Of a DNA stretch of 64,000 bases, positions 3,172-54,821 are shown piece by piece. The notes beneath the pieces are model-generated. The model was not told where the DNA came from. It did no database searches and saw only the letters and a program-made list of their open reading frames with translations. The stretch spans positions 99,338-163,337 of IMG/VR virus record IMGVR_UViG_3300045988_122072, one strand, 5' to 3'. The first letter of the stretch is position 1. Each line of letters begins with the position of its first letter. A program made the translations under genes and the position numbers. The DNA is from a virus.

Positions 3172-3559
3172 ATATAAAGATTATTATGAAGACCTTTATT
3201 GTGAGTTTGAAGACAGAGTTGAGGCACTAGATTTTCTACCGGATGGCTGGGTTAATAGTTTTGTGCCAAAGCTGAAAGAAGAACTCTTTGGTATTATTGG
3301 TAGTTATACTGAAAACTTTGAAATTGTACAGGCGAAGGAAAAGTGGGGAGAACTAAGAGTGTATTGGAGCTGGGAAGACAAGGATTATTCCGACCTAGAA
3401 GTTGCTGATATGAATGAATTATATGACAAGATTGAAAATATACTTGAAAAATACGCCACTATTAGCCGGAAAACTTGTGCGGTGTGTGGAAAGTTAGCGA
3501 CGTCATATACGACTGGATGGGTACTTCCTGTTTGTGAAGAATGCAAGGAGGAAGCGTAA
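3161..3559 (+). CDS. Hypothetical protein with C-terminal CxxC...CxxC zinc-ribbon-like end
   Basis: 132-aa ORF overlapping the previous gene end. C-terminus 'CAVCGK...CEEC'. Confidence 0.5.
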   Translation: MGNEYKDYYEDLYCEFEDRVEALDFLPDGWVNSFVPKLKEELFGIIGSYTENFEIVQAKEKWGELRVYWSWEDKDYSDLEVADMNELYDKIENILEKYATISRKTCAVCGKLATSYTTGWVLPVCEECKEEA

Positions 3560-34357: not shown

Positions 34358-37300
34358 TCATCTTGTGAACCTTTTTAAACTATTGTTAACGCCCTTCATA
34401 TAAGAATCTAGTTGAGCCTTAACTGCATCCTTAATATCAGGTATAGAATCCCTATCAGCATGTTCGATATTGATCATATTGCCGAATGACATATTAAGCT
34501 CAATACTATTATTGATAATATAAGGAGCGCCAATCTTAGGTTTATTTCTGTCAAGAATATCTTTCGGATCTAGAGTCCCAAGCTTCATAAGATTATCAGT
34601 AATATCACTTGGAATCACAGAACTGCCTTTACTTAGATATTGTAACCTACCATTCGTGTCTGCATGTAATACTAATTCTTCTAGCCCAAGTTCGTCAGTA
34701 ATTGCAAATTGGTCGTTTGGAACTTTCTTAATACCTTTTGCATATCCCTCTATGTCGCTTAACTTGATCCAGCCAGTATACTGTCCGTTTCTGCCAATTA
34801 GCACTTCAGAGCCACTAACTTGATAAACAGTAAATGTAGAACCAGGAACCCAAGATTGCATTCTAGTACCATTGCCGCCATCTCTAGTAAAGTGAGTAGC
34901 AGACTTCTTAACAGTCACGCTAGAACCATTAGCCGGAGCAGCAGGTTTTTGAGGAGCACTAGGTTGTTGTGGAGTAGATGGCGTTGGAGTAGTATATGTC
35001 GCACTAGATGTCTTGTTGGCATTTTGATTAGTAGCGTCAATTAAATGTCTTGCTGTCTCATCCGCCGCAGCTTGTAAATCAAGAAGTTGTTTCTTAATTG
35101 CTTCTAGTTGCGCAGTAAACGCACTTGTAGATGTATTTAATTGATCTTGATAAGTACCTATCGCAATTACGCCTTGTTCCCAAGGATTTGTAATTGCTTC
35201 TGACAAATTAATGCCATATTCATCGGCAATTTCTTTTAATGTCCCTGCAACTACTTCTGTATTTCCAGTAATTGTCGCAAAACTATCAGCGATTACTTGC
35301 TCAACATTCTTTAGATATTCATCAAGAGCTTCCATCTCTTTTTCTTTTTCGTCTTGATAGTTCTCTGCTTGATCGTCCAACGCATCTTGTTGTTTCTCGA
35401 TACTATGACTATAATATAACTCATCTAATTCTTCTTGTGCTGCGGCAAGTTCCGCTTCAAGCTTCTTTCTTCTGGCAATAGCACTTGCGGAATTATCCCC
35501 AGCTATTGCAGCAAGTTGCTTTTGAATATTTGCAATATTCTTTTGTTGCTCTTCTACCTGCTTAGAGAAATCATGAGCATCTTTAGAAAGTTGCAATTCC
35601 TCTTTCTTTTTATTTATAAGCTCATTATAAGCGTCAATTTCCTCTTGCATCGCATTTTTTGCAGCATCAACACGAGTTTTATTAAGAGCAATAAGAGCAT
35701 CTTTTGCAGCCTCATATGACTTTATACTATCCCATTGTCCGTCTTTGAGTTCTTGTAGTTTTTCGTTATACTCATCTGTACTATACTTTCCAGCGGCATA
35801 TTCTTGATTAAGGTATTCAATTTGTTCTGCATATTGTTTTGCCCTATATTGGGCGCGTTCCATTTCTTGGGCAAGTAGACCCATTTTAGTGATGCCCTCA
35901 TTAGTCCAATTGCCCATTTCATCGGCAATATCCTCATCATCGATTAAATCGCCTAAATTAGATATTTCATTGCCGACATTATCAATAGCTTTAATAAGAC
36001 CATCAAAGTTATCCCAGTGTAACTGATTGATAGAATTTTGGAATCCTTCAATCTCTTTACGGCAGTCAATAATAGCCTTGTCAACATCTTGAATTGCGGC
36101 GACCCCTTCATACCATTCCTCAGAGCCGACATCAATATTGCCAGCAGAAACCTGAGCATCAAATTCTTTTTGCATGTCATTGCGTTTCTTTTGAAGTTCA
36201 TCGAGTTCTTTGATGCTATTCTTAATCATTTCTTCATACATTACTGCAGAAGTACGTTCGCCTTGCTCGTCTATCAGATCAACGTTCGCCTGAAGCAAAT
36301 CGTTAAGAGTTGTAATCTTAGTAATAACTCTATCATACTCATCCGCAATAGTTTGCACTTTTTGTAATGAGAGTGATGTAATTTCTTTCTTGACTTGTTG
36401 CTGTTGTGTTCTTACATCTGATGCTTTTTGTGCCCATTCACGATAGTTATTAATTGCCTCTACAACTTCTTGATTAGCTTCTCCTAAGAATTCTGTTAAA
36501 GCAACACCGCCATTTTTAGCAAGCTCTTGATATTGCTGTGGTATCTTCTCTAAAAGTTGTGCGGCATAATCCGCATAAAGTTTATAACCTTCTCCAAGTT
36601 CTGTCAATTTATACTTATTAACATTGATCATTTGATCTTGAATATCATTTTTAGCAGAAATACCTACGGCATTTTCTAGTGCTGCGGACATATAATTTAA
36701 ATCATCATCAATCTCTTCAAGCAAAACTGCGAACCAATCGAACATTTCTTCAAAATCATTGGCAGCATCAGAAAGATCATCTCCAGCGTCAGATAAACTA
36801 TCTGCTGCATCATTCAAATCTGTCCAGAAATTATCATTCTTAGCGCCACTATAATAAGTTGGCGTCGTATAATCTGGAACGATTGTTACATGTGCATTAC
36901 CTTCAGAGTAGGCTTTGCCACGAGAATTGATATGCCCGTTCTTGAACAACTCTTCGGTTTGCTTGTGATTAAAGATAATTGCATTCTTTGGCAAATCTAC
37001 AAATTCTGCGCCATTATCTCCAACAGTATAATATTTGCCAGTTTTAGGGTCTACAACGGTTTCCATCCCGAGTTCGCCAACTAAAGCATCATCTTCTGCT
37101 TGTGGCAATCCCCAATTACCAGATGCATGAGCTGTGCCATCTGCATATATTGTCAGTCGTCCGCTCGCACCAGGAGTATGAACTGTTTGTTCGGTTCCCT
37201 TACCGATGGTTTGATAAGCTGTTGTAATTGTAAATGTTTTATCACTAATGCTTGTCGCATTAAGCTTATCAAGTTTCGCTTGAACTGCACTTACGTTTTC

Positions 37301-40300
37301 TCCTGTTGCTACAAGCTCAGAAGATGTAGATTCAATCTCGCTTTCTAGATTTGAAATAGCTCCAGTATCTCCAACATAATGGAGTAATTTAGCCGTTTTA
37401 TCTGCATCCTGACCAATACCTTCAAGAAGATTCTTAACGACAACTCCATCAACTTCCAATCCTTTGGTATCAAGTTGGAATAGTTCATCACTTGTCCATT
37501 TCCCATCATTTTGCTTCGCTTCGTCAATAAGTCCCCAGATATACTTATCTACAGTATTGGAGTCAAGCAATTGTGGGCCATTTTCTGTCTGTAAAATCGG
37601 AGTAAACGATATGTCTTCTCCATCAAATTCACCAACAGAACTTAATAAAGTGGAATATGTGCCAACCAAATCATCGGCTTTCATGCCCCAACTATCTATT
37701 GCGTCGCCATACTTATCAAGTGACTCTTCGTCCCAATATAGTTCCTGACGATCATTAGTATCTACATTCCCATATTTTGTTTGAGATAAATCTGTGCCAA
37801 TGTCATCTGCAAGAGATTTAGCATTAAGTACATCTGTTACATATTGATTAATAAGATTGTCAAGTTCTCTCATTCCGTCAGAAGTGTCATCAATGGCAGA
37901 CGCTACCTCTTTGCCAGTATAAGAACCGTTGCCCTGCAAATCTTTTACAACGCCAGCAAGGCCAACTGAACTAAAGCCAGATGATTCAACGGCTTTGTCT
38001 CCGCCGAGACTAAACATTTCCATAATAGTATTAAGATAACCATCTTTATATTTGGAAAGTTCGCCCTCAAATCCAGTCCAATCTTTTTCATCATACTCTC
38101 CAGGAACAGCACGAATAACCAAGTTATACTTATCAGAATCAAGAAGATCCTGCGTTGATCCATTCGTGACAAGACCATCTATATAGTCGGCAAGTGCATC
38201 AGATGTTAAAACATCTCCATTCTCAAGAACAGGAGTAATATCAATAGTATACTTATTCTTATCCCCAATTGTTACAGTCTCTGCGGAAGTACTTGCATAG
38301 ATTTCTCCGTCAGAGCCGATGAATGAATTGTATCCTCCACCCATAGCAAGATCATGTTCATACGATGGAGATAAATGTGGACGTTTACGAAGGTCTACAT
38401 TACCGTTTACCAATTTTTCATATTGCGCGCACATTTCTTCAGCATATTTAGCAAGCTTATTAAGTTTTAGCTTATCAAATATGTTGCTGATAACATTTGT
38501 CCCGCTTGCATATGCTTTGCCTCTACTATTAATATAACCATTTTTAAGCAGAGATTTTGTTTGCTTATGGTTAAATATAATATCGCCTTTTTTGACATCA
38601 GCAAACTCTGCGCCATTTTCTCCAAGCATATCCCAACGATTTCCACGCACACGAAGTTCTGGGCCTAATTCACCAACTAAAGATGTATCAGCTGATTCTG
38701 CACCCCAATTGCCAGAAGCGTGAGCCGTACCATTAGCCATTGTAGAATTTAATTCATAACGGCTACGACGTCCACTATGCTTCGTCGCTGTCTGATTTTC
38801 ATTTACCTCACGATATGTAGTAGTTACAGTAACACCAGTAGGAACTCTGTCAATTGCGTCAATCAAATTATTAATTGATTTTACGGCAGCAGTGCTATCA
38901 ACACTTGGGTCTGGGAGTGCCTCAATAGCCTTCTTCGCTGCTTCTGCGGCAGTTTTTACTTCTTCAATTTGTGCCTTTGCCTCTTCTTTATTTTCAACAA
39001 GAAGGTTAATAACTCCTTTGTCATTCAATAAATCCACGTACTGTTGTAGCTTCTGACGCTCATCATCAGTGATCTCTACATCTGGCTTGATTTTATATCT
39101 ACCATCTTCTCCAAGCTCTACAAGCTTACTATCATCTATATTAGCTATATTCGCTTTGACTGCCAGCTCGTTATTATTTGCTTTCCACACAGCCATTTGA
39201 GAGTCTATGTCATCTAACGCAAGCTGAATTGATACCTCTGTGGGTTCTTCTAGATTGTACTTTTTCTTTAATGCCTCTCCAAGTTGTTCAGTTAATTCTT
39301 TAACTTTTTTAGTTTGTGCATTTATTTCTTCTTGAGTATATCCACTATTAGGTTGATTCATTTCATTCAGCTTTTTCGTAGCTTGTTCAACTTCATCTTT
39401 TAAATTTGTGACTTCCTTCGTGACATTTTGATACTCTACAGCATTCTTTCTTGCATCTTCTGCGCAACCTTGTAGCTTACTATTAGCTTCCTGATATTTT
39501 TGTGCCCATTCTTCAACGCCAATTTCATTATTTGCTAAAGCGACATCCAGCTCCGCCAAATTTTTAGTCGCCATAAAAATATTGCCTTCAAGACCTAAGT
39601 CAAGCTGGTCGAAAACGGAACCAAAGTCTCCATTTAACCATTCTGCATCATAAGAATCAATTTCTGTAAACATTGCAAAAGCCATTTCTTTTGTAATTTT
39701 CATCTTATCACAGAAATCATCTAATGTTTTAATATCACTTGAAAGCTCAAAATGTTGCCAATCACCTTTATTTGTAAATACCCCTTTTTCTTGAGCGCTT
39801 TCAATGAACGCCTGAACATTATCTAAGGTCATCTCTGCGCTTTCAAGGGTGCCATCATCACTAAATTTCAATGTAAAATATTTACTGAAATCCGAATTCT
39901 TTAAATAATTGGCAATAGCAGCGACTTTTTCTTCTACCGTATCAAAACCAGCATAAACATCTTCTGGAATCATACCTGCCACAGCAGCCTTAAAAGATTC
40001 TGTTCCAAGTTTTGCTGATTGCAATCCTTCAATAAGTCCAGAAATCATATCTTCTGCTTTGCTGCCATAATCCTTTGCTTCATCGGCAGATTTTGCGTCT
40101 TCATATTTTTGATATGCATCCGCAGCTCCAAGCAACTTCTGTTCAAGAAGGCTATACTTTGCGATTGTTCTTTCTACTGCTCCCATTTCTTTATAAAGAG
40201 CATTAATTTCTTTTGCGTTAGCTTGCGCGAGTTCGCCATTTGCTCCAGTTAATTGCTTAATTTTCTTATACAGCTCATAATACTTTAATCTAGCTTGAGA

Positions 40301-42892
40301 CCTTTCAGTTCTTGCATTTTGAGCAGCTTCTTGTCTCTTCTTTGTAATCAGCTTGTTAAGCAGTGACGCATTTTTAACCACGTATCCATTTGTTGTGTCA
40401 ATTGCATCTGCATATTCTTTTTCATCACCAATGAGTGTTTTTAATGCTTCGCCCTGTTCGTCAGTAAGTTTTATTTTATCATAAACTACTTCGTTTTGAA
40501 CAGATTGTGCACTAGTAACTTTATCAATTTCATCAGCATAATTAGAAAAAGTACTACCAACTGGATCGACTTTATTAAGCTCAGCGTGTGCGGCGGCAGA
40601 ACCTAAAGAATTAATTTGATCCACAGCATCTTGTGTACTAAGCCCAATTTTATTTAACTCATTCCTAAATTCGCTATAATCTGAACCATTTAACGAATCT
40701 GCTGTAAGTTCTCCAGTCTCCGCCAAAGAATATAATTTCTTTTTAACCTCTGGATACTTTTCTAATAGAGCATCAAATTGTTCGGTATAATATTCACCTG
40801 GGTTAATTGTTTTATCTATATCAAGTGCCATTTGCTTAAGCTTATTTGCGAAATCATCATCGACATTTTCGCCATAATTATCTAGATAATCATATAGCTC
40901 TGTTCCATATGTAGATAATGTTTCTTTAAGATTTTGCATTGATGATTCAATTGACTTCTTTTTAGAATCTAGGGCAGACTTTTCGTCCTCACTCATTGCA
41001 CTAGTATCTGTATTAATAAGCTCATTCCATTCTTGCCTTAACTCATTATATTTTTCAATGCCCTTTTGAATATAGCCTTCTTTGTCTATACTACCATCAG
41101 AAATATATTTTAAATCTCCATTCAGTTCATCAGATATTTGTGCCTCAACTCTTAGTAACTCTGCTACTGCCTCATCGCTTAATTCTCCCCATTGCGATAC
41201 ATCGGCAAGCATATTATACAACTTTTCAGAATACGGTTTAATTGCATTTCTTAAATTATCATTAATGATTTGATTATTTTTTGCATTTTCTATTTCAGCC
41301 TTGGCAATTGTGGCATTACCATACCTTTCGTCATCTTTATTGGTTTTAACTTCTTCTATGCTTAAGTTTTTAACATTAAAATCTTTTTTATAATCTTCTT
41401 TTGTTTCTTTCTGTAGTTCTTTTTGCTTAGAATCTTTGCTTTCGTTTAACAGTCTTAATCTTCTTTCCAATTCCTCATTGGTTTGTTTTAAAGTTTCTAA
41501 TTCTTCTTTTTCTACAAAAGATAGGTTATGTTTTCCTTCTAGCTCTTCAATTCTATTTTTAGTAGTCTCAAGTTCAGAATTTAGGCTTTCAATTTCATTA
41601 TTTAGATCTTGAATTTCATTCTTTAATTTCTCTGATGCTGGAGTCATATTAGCTATCCAAGTAACCAACGATATAACTAAAGTAATAGCCATCAAAATCC
41701 ATCCAACCGGATTAGACGCCATTAAAGATTTCAGTGCTGCCGCAACGCCATGAATAGACGTAGAAAGTCCTTGATTCGCAGCGGTCAAACCAAATGCAGA
41801 TATAATTTCTGCGCCCTGAGCGGCAGTTAATGTCCCCGTTGCTACCGCTTCTTGAACTTTTGCTAATGTCAGTTCTGTTTCTCCCTGAGTTAAAAGCCAG
41901 TTGGTTGATTCAGCAGAAAGCTTTACTGCTCCCTCAGCAGCCATTGCTGCAGCATTTGCAGCAGTAACCGTAGTTTGTTCAGTTTTTGCAGTCGTTACTT
42001 GGGCCTCTGATACTGCCTGTTGTATATTCGCTTTATCTACTCCGTTTTTGGCCATTGCTTCTTCTATTTGTGCCTTTGTTAAACCAGCAGAAGCAAGAGC
42101 TGCCGCCTGTTGCTTCGCGGTTAAATCACTAACTGCGGCAGCATACGCACTAAGATTTTGCACATTAAATTCGGCAGCAGATATTTTACCAGCTTCTCCA
42201 AGTCCATTTAATGATTGAATTGCCTTAATTTTCTCCAATGCCTGTCCATAATTAGATACATTGGCGGAAATTTCTTTAAACATAGTAACTGGGTTTATCT
42301 TTTTAGAGATTAATAAATATGAAACTACTCCTGCTAATACTGATTTAAATAACCCAAATGAGTCTACAGCTTTTACAACTGCGGTTCCTAAATTAACGAA
42401 AAATTTAATCCAGCTACTGTCGAGCGCATCAGACCACATTGTCTGAACTGCATTTTTAAATAGGGTGATTCTTCCCTGAATGCTGTTAAGTTGTTTTTCA
42501 TTTTCAGCCATTGCAGAACCTTCTGCATCTAATGCGTCTTGATATGCACCTTCAAGGTCTTCAATATTGGTAAGCATTGCAGCCATAGCATTTGAACGGT
42601 TTTTACCAGCGAGCATTTCAAGTAATGCCGCCTGATCAATGTCGCTCATATCTTTCCAGACAGTCGCAATTTCTTTTATAATATCATATGTTGCCTTATA
42701 GTCGCCGGTTTCAGTTAAAATATCTACACCAGTTAAAGCTTTAACTTTAGATTGAAGCTTGCTGACACTCTCTACTACATTATCAGTTTCTTCGCCTAGT
42801 GATTCCAATTCCTCTACACTTGTACCTCTAATACGTAGTGAGATGGTACGGAGGGCACTTCCTACGCTTGATGGATCCTGTAATACTTTATT
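34358..42892 (-). CDS. Tape measure protein, exon 2 (2,844 codons)
   Basis: The in-frame extension upstream of track ORF (34358..42808) reads NKVLQDPSSVGSALRTISLRIRGTSVEELESLGEE.., the second half of the TP901-type TMP core. TM segments (WILMAITLVISLVTWI) are followed by about 2,000 aa of helical sequence. There are two copies of the 'GTAHASGNWG...LVGELG.E....FNHKQT....NG.INSRGKAY' end module and a C-terminal SH3-like segment. Confidence 0.8.
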   Translation of the reverse strand, partial: NKVLQDPSSVGSALRTISLRIRGTSVEELESLGEETDNVVESVSKLQSKVKALTGVDILTETGDYKATYDIIKEIATVWKDMSDIDQAALLEMLAGKNRSNAMAAMLTNIEDLEGAYQDALDAEGSAMAENEKQLNSIQGRITLFKNAVQTMWSDALDSSWIKFFVNLGTAVVKAVDSFGLFKSVLAGVVSYLLISKKINPVTMFKEISANVSNYGQALEKIKAIQSLNGLGEAGKISAAEFNVQNLSAYAAAVSDLTAKQQAAALASAGLTKAQIEEAMAKNGVDKANIQQAVSEAQVTTAKTEQTTVTAANAAAMAAEGAVKLSAESTNWLLTQGETELTLAKVQEAVATGTLTAAQGAEIISAFGLTAANQGLSTSIHGVAAALKSLMASNPVGWILMAITLVISLVTWIANMTPASEKLKNEIQDLNNEIESLNSELETTKNRIEELEGKHNLSFVEKEELETLKQTNEELERRLRLLNESKDSKQKELQKETKEDYKKDFNVKNLSIEEVKTNKDDERYGNATIAKAEIENAKNNQIINDNLRNAIKPYSEKLYNMLADVSQWGELSDEAVAELLRVEAQISDELNGDLKYISDGSIDKEGYIQKGIEKYNELRQEWNELINTDTSAMSEDEKSALDSKKKSIESSMQNLKETLSTYGTELYDYLDNYGENVDDDFANKLKQMALDIDKTINPGEYYTEQFDALLEKYPEVKKKLYSLAETGELTADSLNGSDYSEFRNELNKIGLSTQDAVDQINSLGSAAAHAELNKVDPVGSTFSNYADEIDKVTSAQSVQNEVVYDKIKLTDEQGEALKTLIGDEKEYADAIDTTNGYVVKNASLLNKLITKKRQEAAQNARTERSQARLKYYELYKKIKQLTGANGELAQANAKEINALYKEMGAVERTIAKYSLLEQKLLGAADAYQKYEDAKSADEAKDYGSKAEDMISGLIEGLQSAKLGTESFKAAVAGMIPEDVYAGFDTVEEKVAAIANYLKNSDFSKYFTLKFSDDGTLESAEMTLDNVQAFIESAQEKGVFTNKGDWQHFELSSDIKTLDDFCDKMKITKEMAFAMFTEIDSYDAEWLNGDFGSVFDQLDLGLEGNIFMATKNLAELDVALANNEIGVEEWAQKYQEANSKLQGCAEDARKNAVEYQNVTKEVTNLKDEVEQATKKLNEMNQPNSGYTQEEINAQTKKVKELTEQLGEALKKKYNLEEPTEVSIQLALDDIDSQMAVWKANNNELAVKANIANIDDSKLVELGEDGRYKIKPDVEITDDERQKLQQYVDLLNDKGVINLLVENKEEAKAQIEEVKTAAEAAKKAIEALPDPSVDSTAAVKSINNLIDAIDRVPTGVTVTTTYREVNENQTATKHSGRRSRYELNSTMANGTAHASGNWGAESADTSLVGELGPELRVRGNRWDMLGENGAEFADVKKGDIIFNHKQTKSLLKNGYINSRGKAYASGTNVISNIFDKLKLNKLAKYAEEMCAQYEKLVNGNVDLRKRPHLSPSYEHDLAMGGGYNSFIGSDGEIYASTSAETVTIGDKNKYTIDITPVLENGDVLTSDALADYIDGLVTNGSTQDLLDSDKYNLVIRAVPGEYDEKDWTGFEGELSKYKDGYLNTIMEMFSLGGDKAVESSGFSSVGLAGVVKDLQGNGSYTGKEVASAIDDTSDGMRELDNLINQYVTDVLNAKSLADDIGTDLSQTKYGNVDTNDRQELYWDEESLDKYGDAIDSWGMKADDLVGTYSTLLSSVGEFDGEDISFTPILQTENGPQLLDSNTVDKYIWGLIDEAKQNDGKWTSDELFQLDTKGLEVDGVVVKNLLEGIGQDADKTAKLLHYVGDTGAISNLESEIESTSSELVATGENVSAVQAKLDKLNATSISDKTFTITTAYQTIGKGTEQTVHTPGASGRLTIYADGTAHASGNWGLPQAEDDALVGELGMETVVDPKTGKYYTVGDNGAEFVDLPKNAIIFNHKQTEELFKNGHINSRGKAYSEGNAHVTIVPDYTTPTYYSGAKNDNFWTDLNDAADSLSDAGDDLSDAANDFEEMFDWFAVLLEEIDDDLNYMSAALENAVGISAKNDIQDQMINVNKYKLTELGEGYKLYADYAAQLLEKIPQQYQELAKNGGVALTEFLGEANQEVVEAINNYREWAQKASDVRTQQQQVKKEITSLSLQKVQTIADEYDRVITKITTLNDLLQANVDLIDEQGERTSAVMYEEMIKNSIKELDELQKKRNDMQKEFDAQVSAGNIDVGSEEWYEGVAAIQDVDKAIIDCRKEIEGFQNSINQLHWDNFDGLIKAIDNVGNEISNLGDLIDDEDIADEMGNWTNEGITKMGLLAQEMERAQYRAKQYAEQIEYLNQEYAAGKYSTDEYNEKLQELKDGQWDSIKSYEAAKDALIALNKTRVDAAKNAMQEEIDAYNELINKKKEELQLSKDAHDFSKQVEEQQKNIANIQKQLAAIAGDNSASAIARRKKLEAELAAAQEELDELYYSHSIEKQQDALDDQAENYQDEKEKEMEALDEYLKNVEQVIADSFATITGNTEVVAGTLKEIADEYGINLSEAITNPWEQGVIAIGTYQDQLNTSTSAFTAQLEAIKKQLLDLQAAADETARHLIDATNQNANKTSSATYTTPTPSTPQQPSAPQKPAAPANGSSVTVKKSATHFTRDGGNGTRMQSWVPGSTFTVYQVSGSEVLIGRNGQYTGWIKLSDIEGYAKGIKKVPNDQFAITDELGLEELVLHADTNGRLQYLSKGSSVIPSDITDNLMKLGTLDPKDILDRNKPKIGAPYIINNSIELNMSFGNMINIEHADRDSIPDIKDAVKAQLDSYMKGVNNSLKRFTR

Positions 42893-42934
42893 CTTTTATA
42901 TTTAATACGTTTCGCAACAACGTATTGCATGTTA

Positions 42935-44080
42935 TTATTGATAATATTTATTTAAAAATTCATTCCATTGTTCCTCAGTGTTGTCACCATAACCATAAAT
43001 ATTATGAAATTGCTTATGAATATTTTCTGATATACATATATAACTATGATATTTTTCTTGCAAATCAAAAAATGTTTGGAATAATTCGTCTATTTGTTCT
43101 CCCGAATATTCTTTTACATCACTATATATTGGAAAGTTTATCTTATCAATTGCTTCGTCCAATATTAAATTAAACCCTCTTATATGATGAACAACTATAT
43201 GGGAGCGGCATCCAGTTATTTTACATGTATAATTATTTGCTTCTTTTATTTTATTTTTCCAAGGAATAAGCTTTTTTCTAATATATTCCGCAATAGTATC
43301 ATATCCCCTTTTATCTATTGGCCTATATAGTTTTAAGCTCCATAAATGTTGTGCAATTGCTTTTACTCCCCTATTAAGATACGATGCCAATTCTTCATTT
43401 GTATATTTTAAATAATTTTCTTTTAAATACAAATTCTCTTCTTCTGTATATGTTCGATTGGAATAATAAAAACTTTTTAAATTCAATTTTCTAGCTTGTC
43501 CTAATATCGACGATTTTGTACGTTTTGGGAGCATTGCCATTACCTCATCAAACGATATATTTGAATAATTCTCTTTTAAAATATCTATTTCATCATTTGA
43601 CCATTCTCTGTTAGATGTTAAATTTAATTCTACTGCCTTCCTGCTTATTTCTTTAACGGATCTATTGTTATTAAGCAAAGTACGAATATTTTTATATGGA
43701 ATTTTCCCATAATTGTTCATTAGTATATTTATTTCATTATCATTCCACGAAATAGCATTATAACGACATTCTTTAGAACAATAATGATGTGTATTCTTAT
43801 CAACTTCAGATATTTTTCTAAAGAATTGTCTTCCACAAAATTCGCATTTGCATTCTTCCTTCTTTTCTGTAGATTTTGTTCTACATTCAACACTACAAAA
43901 AATTTGTCCAGAATAAGCTGGCCTAAATCTTTCTCCACAAATCTCACAATTTCTATATTTTAGTTTTCCGTTATTTCTTTTAAATTCATTCATACAGTTT
44001 CTACTACAATACTTAGTATTTTCAAAATAATCTGAAAATTCTTTTTTGCAATTATTACATATATGATTATATTTTCCCAT
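42935..44080 (-). CDS. Intron-encoded HNH homing endonuclease with N-terminal zinc fingers and SANT/Myb-like repeats
   Basis: 381 aa. Three CxxC...CxxxC units (CNNCKKEF..CSRNC, CEICGERF..CSVEC, CEFCGRQF..CSKEC). Three 'W(S/N)(N/D)xEIxIL.xNY'-type repeats. C-terminal HNH 'CKITGCRSHIVVHHIRGFN...NIHKQFH'. Confidence 0.8.
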   Translation of the reverse strand: MGKYNHICNNCKKEFSDYFENTKYCSRNCMNEFKRNNGKLKYRNCEICGERFRPAYSGQIFCSVECRTKSTEKKEECKCEFCGRQFFRKISEVDKNTHHYCSKECRYNAISWNDNEINILMNNYGKIPYKNIRTLLNNNRSVKEISRKAVELNLTSNREWSNDEIDILKENYSNISFDEVMAMLPKRTKSSILGQARKLNLKSFYYSNRTYTEEENLYLKENYLKYTNEELASYLNRGVKAIAQHLWSLKLYRPIDKRGYDTIAEYIRKKLIPWKNKIKEANNYTCKITGCRSHIVVHHIRGFNLILDEAIDKINFPIYSDVKEYSGEQIDELFQTFFDLQEKYHSYICISENIHKQFHNIYGYGDNTEEQWNEFLNKYYQ

Positions 44081-44113
44081 AATTTTATCTCCCGTATATT
44101 ATCAAAATAAATT

Positions 44114-44287
44114 TCATTTTCTACTATAAAAAATAGCCAATGCATTAAAAAGATCTGACGATTTTGTATATTTATATGTAGTTACACCATTTATAATTTT
44201 AACAAAGGATGGTTTTATACCAATTGTTAATAAATAATCTCTCTCTGGTGTATATTGCGTAGAATATTCTTTATCAAATTTTTTCAT
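44114..44287 (-). CDS. Small intron-borne hypothetical protein (57 aa)
   Basis: GAGAGGGA lies upstream of ATG 44287, an internal Met of track ORF 44114..44311. It is the first ORF after the intron-internal promoter/leader. No family could be assigned with confidence. Confidence 0.4.
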   Translation of the reverse strand: MKKFDKEYSTQYTPERDYLLTIGIKPSFVKIINGVTTYKYTKSSDLFNALAIFYSRK

Positions 44288-44525
44288 ATTTCCCTCTCTA
44301 AATAATAACATGCCAATATATTTCTATATTGAATAGACCATATCTTCATCCTCAGCATTACCTGTTAGGAGCACACCATTTCGTTTAAAGGTATTTAACC
44401 AACGCCATTTGCGATTGCGTCCTACTCCTATTGATTTGAGTATTCGGGATTTTACCCTTATTTTATAATCAATTAGATATTCTCAAATCCCTTCATGGGG
44501 ATGGCCGTTGAACCTTTTGCTTGAT

Positions 44526-44571
44526 TTTAATTTTGTATTGTATATTATATCACAAAATTTAAATTTGTCAA
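44526..44571 (-). promoter_or_regulatory. Intron-internal sigma70-like promoter (extended -10) plus leader box
   Basis: On the minus strand: TTGACA (44571-44566), 16-nt spacer, TGaTATAAT (TATAAT 44549-44544), then ACAATACAAAATTAAA (44541-44526). Confidence 0.65.
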
Positions 44572-44722
44572 GCAACTTGGATGCTGATTGCCCAATCTTT
44601 ATAATTTTTAAACATTCACACCTGTTATTACTAACTATGTTGTAGTTTATAAAGCTCTAAGGGTTTCCCAGCAATTAAATGTGTTCAAATCATATATTTC
44701 TATATGAACAGCCATAAAATAT

Positions 44723-47700
44723 AGCTGCAGCAACCAGTGCTACACTTTGTTCAAGATTATTACCAGCAGCCATTAAGGAGCTTGCAGAATCTTGCAGTGC
44801 AGTCGCAATTCCGTCACTTGAGATTGCGAAATTGTTACCAATTTCATTTAACACGTCAACTACGTGCATACTATCTTTTGCGGCATATCCAAACGCCTGA
44901 ATAGTCGAGATAAGTGCCTCAGATGCCTTATCAGCATCAGTAAATTCAGAAACATTCAATAAGACGGCAGTACTCTTGGCGAGTTCTCCAGCTTCTTCAA
45001 TAGAATAACCAAGACGCGCCCAGGTTGCCGCCATATTGGTCAAATCAGATGTGGTTGCACCAACATTTGCTCCAGTCTGAGCCATTGTCTTTAAGAATCT
45101 CGCATATGTTTCATCTGTCTCATCAGTAACCTTTTTAAGTTCTGTTAATGCGGAATCTATATCTTGCACATATTGAGCGCCTTGTTTTATTGCACCCCAT
45201 ATTCTGTAAATGCTACCAAACGAAGCAAGATAAGTCCCTACTTCCTTAAATTTTCCTTTAATGCCATTAATAAAACTCTCAAATCCAGTTTCAACTGGCT
45301 TGATTTTTCCAGGTATAATTTCAACAGCGTTTCCTAACTCTCCCATGATCATTGTCATTTCTTGTACTTCATGCTTGCCAGTTCTTACTTCATAAGTCAT
45401 GGTACGAGTTTCTGCATTAAAGCCCTTAAAATTTGCTCCCTCAACAGAACTTACATAGCTTAACATTGCATTTTTAACAGCATCAATATCTTTTGGATTA
45501 ACATTAGCAAAGAATTTTTGGACATCCAAATCTGCTTGTTGCGAATTAATTTTACGTTGCGCTTCGTCCGCGCCTAACAATGCCTTTTCTGCCTCGGTCG
45601 CTCTATCTGCCAAAAGCTTCAATGCGGCTTGCTCTCCGTCAGAATCAGATAATAGTTTGCCGCTCTGAGCGAGTTCATCTTTTTTTTTCTTCAAAGCGTC
45701 TAAAGCATTAAAATATTCTTTGACAACAGTTACGTCATTAACATTAACGCTTTGATCGTTATATGAACTTAATGCTTGCTTAACATATTCTTCTCTACCA
45801 AGAACTTTTGTGGCGCTATTATATCCATATGCGTCTTTAGACTTCCCAATAATACCATTTCCAAGTTTGACCAATTCTTCTTGCGCAGCTTTTAACTTGT
45901 CAATGTTTTCATCAAGATTATCTGCAGCACTATTTCTAACAGCCTCTTGAGCCGTCCCATATGCCTTCATTGCTTCCTGATAAGCTTGCATTTCTTCGCT
46001 ATCCTTATCAAAGAACCCTTCTTTTTGTCCATCAACAATAGCCTGATTAATTTTATGAATAGAAGCAGTAACATTATCACAAGAATCTTGAAGCTTTTCA
46101 GATTGAATATAAGCAGCGTTAAATGCGTCACTCCAACTCATAATGACACTTGTTATTTTGCCATCAGCATCTACCATATCAAAAGATATCTTATCTTTAA
46201 CGAAATCATATTGGCTAAAATCATATTGGCTATTTTTAGATGTAGCATATTGTTTAGCGTAAGCTTCCATAATAGCTTGGCGATCTGTAAATAGCGTATT
46301 TTCTGAAATCTTATTATCTCCAGATATGATTCTGCCTTCTTTATCAAGCGCCTGATATGCGCTTTGTATCTTCGCATTTTTGGTTAATTCTGTTTGTAGC
46401 TCTTTGACTTTTGACACAGCACTGTCTAGTTTCTGAAGATCAGCATCGGTAATGACAGTTCCATTTTCTCCTTTTGCGCGAATATCCGCCGCTATCTGTT
46501 GTAGCTCTTTAAATTTGTTTGCATATTCTTGGACTTCGATATTATCTGTGCCAAGAATTTTTTGAATATCAGCATAATTCTTATCGTTCCAACTAAGTGC
46601 CTTACCAGCGTCTTTAATTGATCTTTTTGTCCACGCGGAAGTAGAGTCTGGATTAAGGGCGTCCATCTGAGCTTTTGTCAGAGTAGATTTAACCTCTTTA
46701 GTAGTTTCTTCTATTTCTTTTGTACCAATGCCAAGAGCCTCTTTTAGCTTAGACATTTCGGCGGCAATTTCATCAGCAGACAAACCTTTATATTCATTAT
46801 AGAATCCTCGCTCATAAGAAGTAAGCTTTTTACTCTCTAATGTAGCAAATAATGTGCGCATAGCCTGAGTCAATTGATCTGGCAGTGCGCTGTATTCTGT
46901 TGCAATACCGCCCATTGATTTATCATATTCACGATTTAGAATCTGAGAAATAAAATCTCCACCAAACTCTTTGGACAATAAATCTCTAATAACTCCTACA
47001 TAATCTTGTTTAGAAACATTAGTGTCATTATTTAATACACGGTCGTAATAAGACTGGAAATTGGCAATAACATTCCTTAATTTACTGTATTCTTCATCTG
47101 TTATAGAATATTGTTCACCAACATCATGCCCAGTGGAAATGTCGGATATTGACAGCATACCTCCGGCTTCTTTCACAACTCTTTGGAGATATCCATTAAG
47201 CATTCTTGCCATTTCTCCAGAATTTTGAGCGGCAATATCCTCTCCATTCGCAGTAGAGAACATGGCAGTGATAACATCGTTGATTATTGGATATTTTTCT
47301 GCGATATCTAAAGCAGTTCCAAAAGAATCTTTTCCTAAATCTATAGACATCATTTGACGCCCATAAATCATATTATATTTTTTTAAATTATTTTCGTCCG
47401 CAAAATCTGCCAATTGTTCAATATCTGAAAGGGAGAACATTAAATTATTGGTGCCTTTTTTATAAGCATGGGAATGCGTCATAGAATCTATTTCTTGTTC
47501 TATCTTATCAAACGTAACTTGGAACAGATTGCCTACTGCAAACTCAATTGCCTTCCCATCTTTTTCCGTAAAGCCATATTCTACATTTTGTTTTGAAACG
47601 TCTTTGCCATTATCAATTGCATTAGTTAGTGCAAGAATTGCAGTTTTAAATTGCTGGAACGTTTTTACGTTATTAAGCTCTGCGACATCAGTTGCTCTAT

Positions 47701-50700
47701 TTTCTTCATAGCCTAAAAGTTGTCTGGATTTTGCCGTATTAGTGCCTGCCTGTTTAAGTGCAGTAAGTTTATCATTGGCTAGTTTTTCTAATGCCGCAAG
47801 ACGAGCCTCTTGTTCTTTTTTGGTCATTTCAGAAACATCTTTTAATCCAGCAGCCGCAGATTCAGATCCAGCAGTCGCACTTTCAATGCCTTTTTCTATA
47901 GCTTTTTTAGCAACCTCCGATGTCTTCTTGACAACTTGTTCTGCACCAGTCTTGACAGTTTCAGCTATTGGAGTAGAATCAACTTCGCCAATTAATATAT
48001 CAAGATTTTGAATGTCAGAATCTGATCCGCCATACAACTTAGCATATGCTCTATTGCGAGCTTCTGTTATATTAGCAATTTCTTCTTTTGATATACCACC
48101 ATAGGCTTTCTGCTGTTCTATAGATAACTCTGCATCTCTAACTTCTCTTTCCAAAGCTTCTTTAATTCCAAGGAAATATGCATTTTTCTTTCTGTATAGA
48201 TCTGCTAGATTTACGCGGAATCCTTTGCCATCGGTAAATACTTTATCTTCAGCAGTTTCTTCTTCTAAACGAGTAACATCTTCAGAAATTGTACTCATAT
48301 ATGCCGAGATGCTTTCTCCTAACTTTTTATTTACAGAATCATATATTCTCTTACGGAGACTTTTTTCTAATTCATCTGCTTGATTAAAAACGGTACTAAC
48401 TTGCTTACCAAATGCTGTTTCAACTTGATCTTTGCCAGTACCCTTTGTCATTGTCATTCCACTTAATTTTGATTGTAAAATTCCTTTAAGCTGATCATCG
48501 ACAGAATCTTCTCCAAAATTTTCAACCAATAATTTAGCGAAATTGTCATAATAAATATCAAAGAATTTTTGTGTCTTTTTATTAATAATATTTTTAATCT
48601 CTTCTCCATTATTTAACGATGCTCTTTTAACATCAAAAATACCTCTTACACGAGAAATTTCGCTTATCAGCTCATCGTTAGACAAGTCTTCATTCTTTAA
48701 TATTTCTTCTATCGCAGCATTTTCGGCATTATTTATTTTTCTAAGTCTAGACTCTATTGCCTCTTGAATTTCCTGCTCCATAGTTGCCTGAGCAGTGTCC
48801 CATGCAGTTTGATGTAAAGCCACGCCAGCTTCATCATATTTAGACTTAACAAAATTAGAAGCAACATCTTGGTACATATTGTTTATTACTTCAGAAATAC
48901 GATTAGCAATTGCATTTTGAAGCTCATCAACTTTTTCTTGTGCTTTTTCATATAATGACGCCCTATAAGTTCTAAATTCATCTGTAGATGTGTAATTTGA
49001 AACGAACATCTTTTGCAGATTGTCTGCCGCAGATGATTTATTACCATATATAGTAGTAAATCCACCTTGCTCTTTATTGAATGTAAGCTTTTGTGCTTTC
49101 TGAACATCTTTCGTATAATCTCCAAGCTTGCTAATTTGTTCATTATTTCTGATAATGACTTGTTGAAGCTCTTGAATTTTTTTAAGTGCATTAAACTTTT
49201 TCTGCTCAGGGGACAAACTTTCATCAAAAATATTGGATGAGTTAATGCCGTTAATTTCTTTAAGCTTATTATATAACTCTGTTACTTCTGTATTTATAAT
49301 GTTTAAAGCTTGTGTTTTTTCACTAAGAGTTACTGGCGATGCCCCAGATTCCTCAAGCCTATTAATTTCCCGTACAAGTTCAAGCTCTTCGCTCTTTTTT
49401 TGATTATATTCAACTTGCAATTGAGCTACTTGTTTGTTTCTTTCTGCAATTTTTAATTCCTGTTCTGCTTTTTGAACTTGATTGTCTAAAGATTCTCTTT
49501 CTAACTCAATAGACTTTTTTTGTTCTACCAATGGCATCAACGAGGATCTTTGCGATGCAACAGTATCTTCATATTTATTAACAACGCTATTGCCAACTTC
49601 GTATTGTTGTAAAGGAAGTTTTGCCTTTTTAATATACGTACCATATTGCTGAATAATCGAAGAAATATAATTATTGATAACAGAATTTAGATTACTAATA
49701 TCAGCGTTAATTTCTTTTTTTGATCTTGCATTATCAACAGATTCTTTCAAAGCATCTATTTTACGCTGTAAGATTGCCTGAATTTCAGTGCTCCCTTTAT
49801 CATTCGCTTCTTTTAATCTTTGTTTATAATCCTTTAATTCAGCCTTCGCATTATCATAGTTACTTTTTTCATTAAATAATTCCGCTCTTTGCTGTAATAA
49901 AGTTTGTAGCTCTTTTGGGAAAATTTCTAAATTTGATAAATCAAAGTTCTTGCTATTTTTAAATTGTTGAAGGGCATCAATCTGTTGTTTTAAAGAATCA
50001 CGTACATTTTTTGAATTATAAAATGACTGTTTATCCATTCCAGCGAACAAATCTTTCAAATCTGCATCGTTTAACCCTAAATCATTGCTAATATTCATAA
50101 TAGAATCAAATAGGCCGTTTAAACTCTCTTGTGCTGTTTGAATTTGAACTGCGACTTTATCATATTCCGCTGTTCCGGCCTGTTTCCCTTTAAGGATTTT
50201 CTCAAGAGAAGATAAATCCTGCTGCCTTTGTTTGTATTCCTCAATAGTGGTCTGTAACTGTTCAAAAAGATTATCATCAAGTTTCTGTTTTTGTTCTGTA
50301 ACAGATTGCTGAATTTGTCTATTAATTTCCTGCAAAGTAGTCTCTTGTTCTTTTGCTTTTGATTCAAATTCAGAAGAAACTTTTTCTCCCTTTTGAACCT
50401 TAGTATAATTAACAAGTCTACTTTTACTTTGTTCTAACTCATTTTGTTTATCTGCTAATTCAATTTGATATTTAGACAACAATCCCTTATTTTCAGATTC
50501 CTTTGCGGCCGAAATTTTAGATTCAATTTCTTTAATTTCTTTGTCAATCGCTTCTTGTTTTTTTTGCTCAGTAGAAATGGCTTTACTTAAAAGCTCTGGA
50601 GATTCTTCGTATTTTTTATACTGCTTGGAAGTATTTACAGTAGTGGCCAATCTTGATTCTACTTGCTTTTTTGCCTCAAGTAGTTGAATATAATTATCAG

Positions 50701-53700
50701 ATAAGTTTTTCCCTTCAAACTTTAATGTGCTTTTATTTGGAGTTTTGCTCTGATACTTAACCATCAGATCATAAATGTCTTTTTGTTGTTTATAATCTGA
50801 TTTAAGTGATTCTATTTCTGAAGATTCAGAATAAGAAAAAGATTTAACACTATCGAGCACACTTTGTGCTGAAGCAACTCCGTCTCTAGCAACCTGCAGC
50901 TTTTGATTTATTTCTTCTTCTTGCTTTGCGAGTTGAGCAAATTTTTCATCTCTTGCTTTCTTAGCTGCCTCTAATTGTTCAGAACTCTTTTGAATATTTT
51001 CTTCAGCGACAGAAAGCCTTTCTCCCCAATCAATAGAATATTCATCATTTACTTTAATTTGAGACACGTCAAACGGTGCGGGTCTTGGGTTATCTTTTGA
51101 ATAGAATTGGGTTTGCGCACTTAACTTTGCGTTCTTATTCAAAAGATTATTAATCATTCTTAATGCTTTACGTTTTGACGTAGGGGAATCAGATCTGTCT
51201 ATTATCGTAGGTCTATTAATACCTTCATAATAAATATCGGCATTCAGATCAGACAACATATTATTGGAGATACCATAAGCTGTCATTTTACCTTTGCCAT
51301 TTTTCGCACTAGCTATTTTTAGTCCGGCTCCCTTTTCTCCTTTTCCAAGTTGTCCCAATAATGTCTGTCTAGAAATAACAACATTATCACCAGCAACCAT
51401 GCGATTTAACCAACTAACAATATCATTGGCAATTTTTGTAGACGCGTCATCCCCAGAAATTTTAGACATTGCATCAATAGCTGTTCTAAGAGCATCCCCA
51501 TGTATAATTTCTTCAGATGGATTAACCCCAACCATAGAATTTAAAAGAGTTTTTGTATCCTCACTTGCAGTCCCATAAAACTGCTTAAACATGTTTAATA
51601 ATGCAGTATACTCATTGCTCTCGCCTTTGGATAAGCCTTTAGTGGCAATCACTTGTTTGTTGTATTCATTTATATTAGAATATAATGTATTAATTGACTT
51701 CCCAATTTCATCAATATTAGCTTTATATTCTTCAGAAGAAGTTGTAGATTGTAAATCCTTTAAAAAACTACCTAGTTCAGATAACAGCTGCTTAGTGTCA
51801 CCTTTTTCTCCTTTAAGCGAATCAATAACGTCTGCCGTTCTTGCATATTTCTGATAAAACTTTAGCATTTCTGGAGCATTATAGTCTCTATTAATTTTTT
51901 CATTGCCAGAAATTGTAGATAAGCCTAAAGATTTAAACAGAGATTCTAATGTGCCGCTTTTACCAAGTAACGGGGATAATAGAGCAGTTTGATTCTTATA
52001 AGATCCCTTCCATTTACCTGATAGATCGGATAAGTCTGACCCCAAAAGTTCTCCCTTGAATCCGCCTGTCTTAGTATTCTTTTGCAAAAGCCCGGTTAAA
52101 ACATTTCTCACATATTCTTCTGTCATTTTTGACAAATCAGTATCTTCGCCAAAAATATTCTGCAAATAATTCGCCATAGGAGATAGCTTTGCCACTTTTC
52201 CATTTGTCATCTTCACAGTTCTGTCGCTAACTTCTTCACCCTTGGCAATTTTATCATTCATTGCTTTTTGTTTTGAAAGTGACTTATAATATGTCTCTCC
52301 AAAATTTTTAGCAAATGCAGTAAGCTGGGCAACCGTTTTTGACATCAGCACCGCGCTCTTACTATTTTCTGTAGATGCCATTTTCTGATCTCTTGCGGCA
52401 TCCGATTGAGCATCAGCAGCTCCTAAATTTTCAGAAGCAGCTTTAGATTGATCTGACGCGGCGCTTGCTTGAGTATTTGCAGCAGAACTTTGAGTATCAG
52501 CAGCGGATGCACTAGAAGTTGTAACCCCACTACCCAAAACTGGCATTACTCCGCCAGAATAAGTTGCCCCAGAAATGTTTGCAGATATATTAAATGTCTT
52601 ACTATTGAGAACATTTTCAATTTCTCCAATTAAAAACTCGCCATCTACATACAGTTTTAATGGCTGTTCGTTAAATAATGCTTCCATTGCAGAAGTAATA
52701 TTGCTAATATCTTTATTATCAAGTTTTAGCATATTCATCAATTGAGCTTTAATTTCTCTAGCATCCGCTTCAATTGAAGTTCTTGCATCATGAATAGACT
52801 TTTTTAACGATTCTAGTTGTTCTTTTAATTTTGCAGATGGATCTGTTTTTTCGCCTTCGCCTTCTTGTTTACTATCGTCAAACGCTATTGACATCGGGAT
52901 TTTTTTGATTCTTGTCGTTTGTTTAATAATTTTATCAATAAAACCATTAATCTTTTCTACATATGCATCAATTTCTGCATCTGCAGGAACATCAAGCTTT
53001 AATTCTATAGACTTCAGACCTGCTTTTTCAAGCATTTCTTGTAGCTGGCCTGATAATTGTTGCACGGACTCTTTTGCACTATTCAATCTATTTTCTAATT
53101 CAGTTACAACTTTGTCTAAATTAGACCCATATGTACTTATTTCTTCCTTGAATGCCGAGCTGTTAATTCCAAGATCTTTTGATAAACTTCCAGAATATTT
53201 ACGTCCGATTGCTATAATATTTTGAAGAACGTCTCCGAGCTTTTGTAGCTTATCTATAGGAAGATTTTGCAAAAAGTCAACATCGACATCATTCCAGCCA
53301 ACGATTTTATCAAATTCGTCACCTAGCTTGCCGAATTCTTTAACTATATCTTTATTTTTTAAATCAATTGTAATTTCTGGATTTTTTAACTTTGCTAAAA
53401 AGTCTTCCATTTCCTTGCCCTTTTTGGCAAGACCCATATCAGAATTTTTAAATTTATTTACCACATTAATAGCCGCATTAAAAGATGTAACAATCTTATT
53501 TGCAGTCTGTTCTACACTAGTTTGTGTTTTGACTGCATCAACTGTAATATCTTTAAAAAAAGTTTTTCCAGTTGGATGATTACTTTTATATTGTTGTCCA
53601 ATCGTATTATAAAACCCAACAATTTTTGCAGCAAGCCCATCGAACCCTTCACCGGCCTCCGAAAGCTGTGGCATCATGCCCTTAAGATCGGTCAAAGTTT

Positions 53701-54319
53701 GTGCAAGCGCTCTGCTGCTTACGTCCCACCCCTTGTTTGTTGCTTGTGTAAGACCAATCTGAAACTCACTAACCATTTGGGTCAATTGCCCCATTAAAGA
53801 GCTAAGCTTTTCTTTATCGGTTGATTTGCTAATATCATTAATAATGCCTTTAATAGACTCTGCGGTATCCTTAAGTTTACCAGTCGCTCCCTTTTCGTCA
53901 TAAACAAATAGATCTGAAAGTCTGGAAAATAGATCAGACGGAAGTGATTTAACAGTATCACTAAGGCTTGCAAAATTTTCTCTAATATCTTTGATACTTC
54001 CAGAAAGTTTTGCAATATCATCCCTATTTTGCTTTAATCCGTCAAAAATCTTAGGTGCGCTAACGCCGCCTAATTCTCTTTCAAGCTGAAGCAATCTATC
54101 TACAGATTCAACAATGTCCGCAGTTTGCTGTTTTACTTGCTCAAATCCTTTATTCCCTTTATTCTGAATACCAGAGTCAAAACTCTTTTGCGTTGCTTTA
54201 ATTTTTTTATCTAAATTTTCTAAACCATCACTTAATGTTTTTAATTCTTTTTGATAATCTTTATTTAATTCAACAGTAATACCATACGCATATTGCGCAC
54301 TAGGCCCTCTGCTACCCAT
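44723..54319 (-). CDS. Tape measure protein, exon 1 (about 3,199 codons from ATG 54319; track start TTG 54337)
   Basis: GAGGTG lies 8 nt upstream of ATG 54319. About 3,000 aa of Lys/Glu/Gln-rich coiled-coil sequence runs into the first half of the TP901-type TMP core ('TYARFLKTMAQTGANVGATTSDLTNMAATWARLGYSIEEAGE...AISSDGIATALQDSASSLMAAGNNLEQSVALVAAA'). After that the frame decays into IFYGCSYRNI*. Confidence 0.8.
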
Positions 54320-54329
54320 ACTTTTCACC

Positions 54330-54821
54330 TCACCCAATTCTTCTTAATCCTTGTGACTGGAAATAAGAATCCATTTCAAATATATATGTTTCTTCAAATT
54401 TTTCCATTTTTTCTCCAACTGGCGTTCCAATAAAAGTGCCTGAATATCCTGGCCAGCCATGTGCTCCGATAGCAAAATCGCTCATAATAATACCACCAAT
54501 ACCAGAACCCCATCCATCTTTTGCGCCAACATCTCGATTGTACACTTTAGAGAAATCTGCCCCTCTGTCCGTAAATCTTACTCCTGTTTGTATTTTATTT
54601 GCATTCCATAATGTATATGGAGCATAACCATAATCTCTTAAAGTATCTGTTCTTTCGTAATTATCAGAACTATATTCGCTATAATAATTATCCATCCAGC
54701 GCTTTGCCTCTTTCGTAAAATCAACTCTCGCCTTTTTTGCTGCCCCGTTAACAATGCCTCTGGTATTTTTCTCCGTATCTTGCATAATCTTATCAATAAA
54801 AGCTTTCATGGTTGATGCCAT
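54330..54821 (-). CDS. Hypothetical protein upstream of the tape measure gene
   Basis: 163 aa with AAAGGAGCGG upstream. Its stop lies 8-10 nt before the TMP ATG. No family recognised. Confidence 0.5.
   Translation of the reverse strand: MASTMKAFIDKIMQDTEKNTRGIVNGAAKKARVDFTKEAKRWMDNYYSEYSSDNYERTDTLRDYGYAPYTLWNANKIQTGVRFTDRGADFSKVYNRDVGAKDGWGSGIGGIIMSDFAIGAHGWPGYSGTFIGTPVGEKMEKFEETYIFEMDSYFQSQGLRRIG

Follow-up and report, generated by a model that had tools for sequence, protein, structure and literature searches.

We analysed a 64,000-nt stretch of virus DNA (positions 99,338 to 163,337 of IMG/VR record IMGVR_UViG_3300045988_122072; the whole stretch is called the window, and coordinates are counted from its first base), in which a giant gene for a tape measure protein (TMP) is interrupted on the minus strand by a 1.83-kb insert. 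The insert (44722..42893) is very probably a phage IA2-type group I intron that is competent for splicing and was recently mobile. A group-I-like intron had been proposed in the original prediction, and this proposal was borne out by homology to intron 2 of the nrdE gene of Staphylococcus phage Twort, by an end-to-end alignment of the Rfam group I model RF00028, and by intron-less and endonuclease-less alleles with the same boundaries in related phages.

Tape measure exons and ribozyme core

Two long minus-strand open reading frames (ORFs) flank the insert, 44690..54337 (3215 aa) and 34358..42808 (2816 aa). They had been taken for two halves of one tape measure core, and the Pfam domain PF10145 (PhageMin_Tail) was found to be divided exactly at the junction: profile positions 3-123 (residues 3084-3204 of the tape measure) run up to ..VAAA, and positions 130-201 follow from downstream residue 6. 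The translations agreed with the predicted ends. The upstream ORF reads to ..NNLEQSVALVAAA and then through 10 further codons (IFYGCSYRNI) to a stop, and the downstream frame reads NKVLQDPSSVGSALRTISLRIRGT from 42892. The join of 44723 to 42892 is in phase, with T as the final base of exon 1 and G as the final base of the insert, as had been claimed. The exons are as follows:

44723..54337, minus strand: tape measure exon 1, 3205 codons to ..VAAA, from the ORF listing and translation
34358..42892, minus strand: tape measure exon 2, 2844 codons plus stop, beginning AAU AAA GUA = NKV

After splicing the exon junction is predicted to read ..GTTGCTGCAGCT followed by AATAAAGTATTACAG.., and the product would comprise 3205 + 2844 = 6049 aa. 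A 123-aa spliced junction peptide aligned without gaps to tape measure proteins of Enterocloster, Thomasclavelia, Bacillus, Lactococcus and Clostridioides phages, and the uninterrupted homologues are continuous across the junction. Exon 2 has no plausible start of its own; a TTG, 28 codons in, is the earliest start codon and abuts GAGGAA without spacing.

In the spliced protein of ~6,049 aa (gene 34358..54337, minus strand) the PF10145 core would lie mid-protein, at residues ~3084-3280, and the regions flanking it vary greatly in length among relatives. If ~0.15 nm of tail per residue holds here, 6,049 aa would imply a tail of roughly 0.9 μm.

Within the insert we placed all elements of a group I ribozyme, listed below; a window coordinate equals 44723 minus the intron position.

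42893..44722, minus strand: predicted group I intron, 1830 nt, beginning AUAUUUUAUGG and ending ..AAAUAUAAAAG, omega-G at 42893, boundaries the same in ORF-less copies
44314..44722, minus strand: complete ribozyme core P1-P9, the first ~410 nt of the intron
44708..44728, minus strand: P1, exon GCAGCU (44728-44723) plus intron AU pairs AU plus internal guide sequence GGCUGU (44713-44708), 5-nt loop, from the RF00028 alignment
44707-44690, minus strand: P2, GAAA loop
44684-44677 and 44381-44372, minus strand: P3
44674-44668 and 44587-44582, minus strand: P4
44663-44591, minus strand: P5-P5abc, GUAA-capped hairpin
44580-44579 and 44515-44514, minus strand: P6
44517..44575, minus strand: P6a hairpin, 8-bp stem UUGCUUGA/UCAAGCAA plus inner helix, containing a promoter sequence and leader box
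44506-44502 (GGCCA) and 44340-44336 (UGGUC), minus strand: P7
44501-44488, minus strand: P7.1
44487-44387, minus strand: P7.2 with a long extension
44370-44349, minus strand: P8
44331-44314, minus strand: P9, GAAA loop
44303..44313, minus strand: P9.1 stem, 5' strand, GCAUGUUAUUA, 11 bp, perfectly complementary to 42937-42927
42927..42937, minus strand: P9.1 stem, 3' strand, UAAUAACAUGC, its first three bases being the endonuclease stop codon
42893..42926, minus strand: P9.2 hairpin AAUACGUU/AACGUAUU (42926-42904) and 3' tail AAAUAUAAAAG with omega-G 42893

In a 531-nt search the whole RF00028 (Intron_gpI) model, positions 1-253, aligned to 44732..44314 with 39.9 bits and an E-value of 8.7e-9. 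The covariance search that had been suggested as a check thus gave a full-length alignment, with a score that remained under the gathering score of 50 bits. The 6-bp P1 drawn in the original prediction (exon GCAGCU with GGCUGU at 44713-44708) is the same pairing that RF00028 aligns as P1, and T44723, the last base of exon 1, supplies the U of the splice-site pair U44723.G44713. With the Rfam alignment and an anchored per-sequence search every helix of the P3-P9 core could be placed. The R element is GGUUCAACGGCCA and the S element GAAGAUAUGGUCUA. An 8-bp hairpin before the 3' splice site, AATACGTT/AACGTATT, was present at 42926..42904 as described, and P9.2 is part of the minimum-free-energy fold of an ORF-less intron copy. 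One structural expectation did not hold, namely an unavoidable overlap of the endonuclease ORF with the 3' core elements. The ORFs begin only after the end of the core and are preceded by ~420 nt of non-coding structured RNA; a 57-aa ORF (ORF57) and the endonuclease gene are enclosed in the loop of the 11-bp P9.1, and their sole contact with this stem is the stop codon.

At 44726..44744 (minus strand) a terminator-like match, with the stem UGUAGCA..UGCUGCA and then GCUAUAUUUU, overlaps the 5' splice site and shares exon bases with P1. Rather than a terminator, it probably represents an alternative hairpin of the exon or a coincidence.

Intron homologues, alleles and probable mobility

With sensitive blastn the first ~150 nt of the intron (44723..~44575) matched positions 2313-2455 of Twort record AF485080 (78% identity, E-value 6e-21). 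The matched Twort stretch corresponds to nrdE intron 2's 5' half and stops just before the I-TwoI HNH gene; the Twort 3' half, AAAGUUCAACGACUAUCCC..GAUAUAGUC.., corresponds to window 44515..44336, AAGGUUCAACGGCCAUCCC..GAUAUGGUC. Each P1 is fitted to its own exon on the same architecture. The intron core was common to 220 phage records, including Vibrio, Staphylococcus, Bacillus AR9/PBS1, T5-like and phiR1-37-like phages. It was detected only by sensitive blastn, megablast against 50,697 phage records having given no match. A scan with the pattern GGGCAATCAGCATC-N5-35-GTTCAACG detected 63 viral contigs in which P6 holds no ORF.

In a 12-sequence alignment RNAalifold detected compensatory double changes in 25 of 42 pairs (P3, P4, P5, P5a-c and P6a). 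MAFFT had misplaced P3'/P8/P7' of the window owing to the ~100-nt P7.2 insertion, and P7, P8 and P9 were therefore not recovered by RNAalifold; for the window, P3'/P7/P8/P9 were placed by hand (anchored search) and with the Rfam alignment. P7 varies in a paired manner among the members (GACUA/UAGUC, GACCA/UGGUC, GAUCA/UGAUC), the window having GGCCA/UGGUC. The sequence of P3 differs in every member while its position, just 5' of P8, is constant. Per-sequence shuffling of P3 was not significant by itself because the helices are short, and the support for P3 comes from position and covariation. Almost every member has P9 as a hairpin with a GNRA cap.

Next to these homologues, a protein scan of IMG/VR gave 39 related loci (designated L with a number) on contigs of 100-170 kb, most of them uninterrupted at the window site. 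L026, with 98% amino acid identity, has an empty site in which ..GTAGCCGCTGCA is joined directly to AACAAAGTC.., reading VAAANKVLQDP; the intron-less sequence of this type is ..GTAGCCGCTGCAAACAAAGTCCTTCAGGATCC.. Excision of the insert would join VAAA to NKVLQDP and so give the uninterrupted L026 allele. A 503-nt version of the intron with the same boundaries was found in L017, L029 and L030, where a deletion between GGGAA(A)T repeats has removed the ORFs, and an independent 457-nt ORF-less version, again with the same boundaries, in L025. Both deletion derivatives break within the loop enclosed by P9.1 or at the 3' strand of P9.1. The exact ORF65 protein was present on at least 22 contigs from independent runs, which share the layout TMP-N / ORF65 / 381-aa / TMP-C. 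In one of them, L110 (3732-4877), the endonuclease gene of an otherwise identical intron is broken into 84 + 261 aa, and this is an intermediate of endonuclease decay.

The exons of the window and L026 were compared in 60-nt bins. Identity was 58-60/60 per bin from -1500 to -720, only 43-44/60 in the bin on either side of the site and again 60/60 at +60. The divergence spike is confined to about -400..+60 nt and nearly all synonymous, and it includes a GCA to GCU change at position -1, where the intron-less allele has A. This pattern is the signature that co-conversion would be expected to leave, to which L026's own intron, 11 codons downstream, may add.

The PF10145 region of the relatives (L011, L017, L018, L025, L026, L027, L031, L033 and L002) contains at least eight insertion sites within ~190 codons. 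On a 1,000-residue spliced query, in which the window junction is 500/501, these are q411, q443, q~465, q500, q511, q~517, q527 and q597. At least two intron families are represented among the inserts, one like Twort nrdE intron 2 and one like T4 td. L025 carries three introns within 70 codons, with separating exons of 57 codons and 33 nt.

Candidate promoter, ORF57 and putative endonuclease in the intron

An endonuclease with HNH, zinc-finger and SANT parts, a 57-aa ORF and a complete promoter with a leader box had been read in the insert, and a feature answering to each was located:

44544..44571, minus strand: sigma-70-type promoter sequence, TTGACA-16-TATAAT with TG at -15/-14, 12/12 match, facing the ORFs
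44527..44540, minus strand: leader box copy CAATACAAAATTAA, no ribosome-binding site (RBS) after it
44114..44287, minus strand: ORF57, 57 aa, Shine-Dalgarno (SD) sequence GAGAGGG at 44298-44292; the alternative ATG at 44311 gives 65 aa
42935..44080, minus strand: putative homing endonuclease gene, 381 aa, with N-terminal Cys4 zinc ribbons, three Myb/SANT-like repeats and a likely C-terminal HNH-type nuclease
848, 2172, 8789, 15707, 17036, 18265 and 22192, plus strand, and 24495 and 44527, minus strand: positions of the 14-nt box CA(A/G)TACAAAATTAA

The window holds three perfect promoter matches (0.12 expected) and nine copies of the box CAATACAAAATTAA (0.14 expected). In six of the nine copies the box lies 0-8 nt before an SD sequence and start codon, whether or not a promoter is upstream; it is sometimes found behind a TTGACAAAT..TATAAT promoter and sometimes between operon genes. 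It looks like a lineage-specific signal of the 5' untranslated region or intercistronic space, for processing or translation, and not like part of a promoter. We also looked for an I-TevI-style operator, a sequence resembling the homing site, over the promoter, but a match of ~14/25 bases by eye in AT-rich sequence was unconvincing.

ORF57 has at least 881 homologous clusters, a mean column identity of 83% and no Pfam match. Differences fall on the three codon positions in the ratio 188:127:322, which shows that it is protein-coding. Its AlphaFold2 model has a predicted local distance difference test (pLDDT) score of 91.5 and a beta-alpha-beta-beta-alpha fold. Foldseek gave no significant match in PDB; among predicted viral structures (BFVD) the matches were DUF5659 models with template-modelling scores of 0.84-0.86. 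In all contexts examined (the window; L018, 4931-5104; L002, 8503-8676; L113, L121 and L126) ORF57 lies ~370 nt past the end of the tape measure exon, 20-30 nt before an endonuclease and directly after P9. The endonucleases behind it vary and represent at least four families, namely the 381-aa family and proteins of 304 aa, 350 aa (DUF4379) and 388 aa. In our estimate it is unlikely that ORF57 is a functional partner of the intron (a maturase-like splicing helper, a homing cofactor or a regulator) and not a passenger. If it were one, the mobile unit would be the ribozyme plus ORF57, with endonuclease modules swapped behind them, and DUF5659 proteins would have a first function.

The 381-aa protein matched PHROG 1271, annotated as 'HNH endonuclease' (E-value 1.3e-17), and has 208 homologous clusters. 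H298, H299, H355, H359, C286 and C349 do not vary among 32 homologues, in which the conservation of N304 is at least 90%, and there are paired Cys residues. The AlphaFold2 model (pLDDT 86) gave as best Foldseek matches in PDB the T5 SciA endonuclease (probability 1.0, E-value 0.026), Myb repeats and zinc fingers. Sequence searches of Pfam, NCBIfam and PDB gave no useful match for either the endonuclease or ORF57. Membership of the HNH class is likely.

In the mechanism that we propose, the first ~410 nt of the intron in the late pre-mRNA would fold into P1-P9, and the last ~45 nt would complete P9.1 and P9.2. A guanosine-initiated two-step transesterification would then excise the intron and join ..GCAGCU to AAUAAA.., which would leave a single frame of 6,049 codons (..VAAA-NKVLQDP..). 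In co-infecting relatives the endonuclease would cut or nick tape measure alleles that lack the intron, and repair would copy the intron together with flanking exon sequence into the cut allele. The P6a promoter would probably give a separate endonuclease transcript without the 5' half of the ribozyme, and endonuclease expression would thereby be uncoupled from the late structural gene, as in the introns of T4 td, nrdB and nrdD. The anatomy, the homology, the covariation, the exact boundaries and the empty, ORF-less and degenerate alleles are shown directly by the sequences; in this scheme we infer splicing, the activity and target of the endonuclease and the use of the promoter.

Alternative readings and related introns

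Several observations speak against an active, mobile intron of this kind. The RF00028 score did not reach the Rfam threshold, and Rfam searches of a 2.6-kb region (E ≤ 10) and of the whole window (at the gathering score) gave no group I match. P7 of the window has a G.U where relatives have A-U, its P7.2 region carries ~100 extra nt, and the candidate P10 is one base out of register. The E-values of the structural matches of the endonuclease are weak (0.026-0.09), and Pfam contained no HNH match for this protein. The box in P6a has no RBS behind it and no ORF begins until ~250 nt downstream; the promoter may accordingly be a relic. As to the Rfam results, the 58-nt P6a and ~100-nt P7.2 insertions lower the score; the 99%-identical ORF-less copy in L017 reached 42.1 bits, and its sister intron at q443, 57 codons upstream, 60.1 bits, which is above the gathering score. 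Rfam gave no match on the Twort nrdE record either. Since the 531-nt search produced a full-length match, the earlier negative searches are attributed to losses at the filter stage. An inactive ribozyme, or one short of a protein cofactor, would suit the low score, the G.U in P7 and the large P7.2 insertion; the tape measure would then be made as two polypeptides from a gene split by a selfish insertion, and genes split by endonuclease insertion are known in T4-like phages. We consider this very improbable, because every core helix is intact and pairs, PF10145 is cut mid-domain, exon 2 is without a plausible start, and at least 22 contigs from phages of 100-170 kb that look complete carry the same intron. 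Moreover, independent deletions have dropped the ORFs yet kept the whole core and both splice sites, as selection for splicing predicts. Least probable by far is that the insert is an intein, a group II intron or an endonuclease cassette that stands alone with no ribozyme. The endonuclease ORF does lie in the same frame as exon 2, but the group I model matched over its full length and a long structured RNA precedes the ORFs. An intein was rejected because of the stop 10 codons past exon 1 and two stops after the endonuclease ORF, with no Hint or intein match in Pfam, and a group II intron because there was no group II match in Rfam and no reverse-transcriptase domain; the cassette without a ribozyme was ruled out on sequence grounds.

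A real intron could also carry a promoter and box in P6a that are a relic or a purely structural hairpin, left from a former endonuclease cassette in P6a, in which case late tape measure transcripts reading through, or the excised intron RNA, would be the only source of expression for the present cassette of ORF57 and endonuclease. We hold this to be possible but rather doubtful. It would account for the intron copy of the box lacking the adjoining SD sequence and start codon that most other copies have, and in other TMP introns of the relatives the box stands directly upstream of the endonuclease RBS. The Twort ORF occupies exactly the same P6a loop, and P6a of the more distant family introns in L018 and L002 contains no promoter. 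On the other side, the promoter is a perfect 12/12 match with an extended -10, one of only three in 64 kb, and points the right way, toward the ORFs; internal promoters are in use in T4 introns (PMC2988022). The non-identical q443 intron of L017 (2402-2430) also has a perfect promoter in P6a, TTGACA-17-TATAAT with ACAAAATTAA within the spacer, and this second case argues for function. Overall, the P6a promoter is probably used in the cell.

The closest known relative is Twort nrdE intron 2 with I-TwoI, for which Landthaler et al. 2002 reportedly proved self-splicing by experiment. The two introns belong to the same RNA family, with a P1-P6 half that is 78% identical and the same P1 architecture, and share the R/S elements GUUCAACGNNNA .. 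GAUAUNGUC, P7.1/P7.2 and the GAAA loop of P9. Twort carries an HNH-type endonuclease, as the intron here probably does, but the architectures are unrelated, with 243 aa in Twort versus 381 aa with zinc ribbons and Myb repeats here. The Twort ORF sits in the P6a loop, whereas here the ORFs are in P9.1 and P6a holds the promoter hairpin. The host gene is one for ribonucleotide reductase in Twort and the tape measure gene here, and the 57-aa ORF is additional here.

Self-splicing introns in a gene that determines tail length had been thought uncommon. This view does not hold, as they were described in 2008 (PMC2504315) and are abundant in the present phage lineage. Tourasse & Kolsto 2008 reported IA1/IA2 introns at three tape measure sites (TMP-IVS1/2/3) in prophages of the Bacillus cereus group (PMC2504315), with P1 adapted to the sites and with both endonuclease loss and intron-minus alleles. 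By this description the two systems are alike in having related, P1-adapted introns at several sites in the conserved part of the tape measure. The 2008 introns are in prophages of cultured Bacillus with TMPs of ~1200 aa, versus an uncultured gut phage lineage of ~150-170 kb with a TMP of ~6,000 aa here, and their three sites compare with at least eight here and up to three introns within 70 codons. The intron thus belongs to an already described family, tape measure genes included, and its kind is not new. What goes beyond the 2008 description is the density of sites, the cassette of ORF57 and endonuclease in P9.1, the P6a promoter and the host gene of 6049 codons.

The endonuclease genes of the T4 td, nrdB and nrdD introns (I-TevI, -II and -III) are transcribed from promoters inside the introns, whatever the transcription class of the host gene (PMC2988022). 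These are, like the intron in the window, phage IA2 introns with an internal promoter, here recognised by its sequence. The T4 promoters are of the middle or late type, lie immediately upstream of the ORF and are associated with hairpins that sequester the RBS, whereas the promoter here has a host-type sigma-70 consensus ~250 nt upstream in P6a, and its leader would consist of the ribozyme's 3' half. The DNA polymerase intron of SPO1 and SP82, phages of the Gram-positive host Bacillus, encodes the HNH endonucleases I-HmuI and I-HmuII. It combines an HNH endonuclease with a phage group I intron, as is likely here, which makes homing of the nicking type a plausible analogue, but its ORF is in P8, its host gene is another one and its endonuclease has no sequence similarity to the one described here. 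The intron endonucleases of SPO1 and SP82 are tabulated in PMC3073962.

For annotation, the intron means that gene callers give two giant ORFs and two small genes in place of the tape measure gene. This intron family goes undetected when Rfam is run on 2.6 kb, 3.8 kb or 64 kb, while a 531-nt scan detects the full-length RF00028 match, and routine pipelines likely miss such introns and call split genes. The promoter of host type carried by the intron and ORF57 offer testable leads on how introns control their endonucleases. With at least eight sites in ~190 codons, the unusually dense hot spot could be used to study competition between introns and endonucleases of co-infecting phages. The lineage also provides a population snapshot of the homing cycle at one site, with empty, invaded, endonuclease-decayed and endonuclease-deleted alleles.

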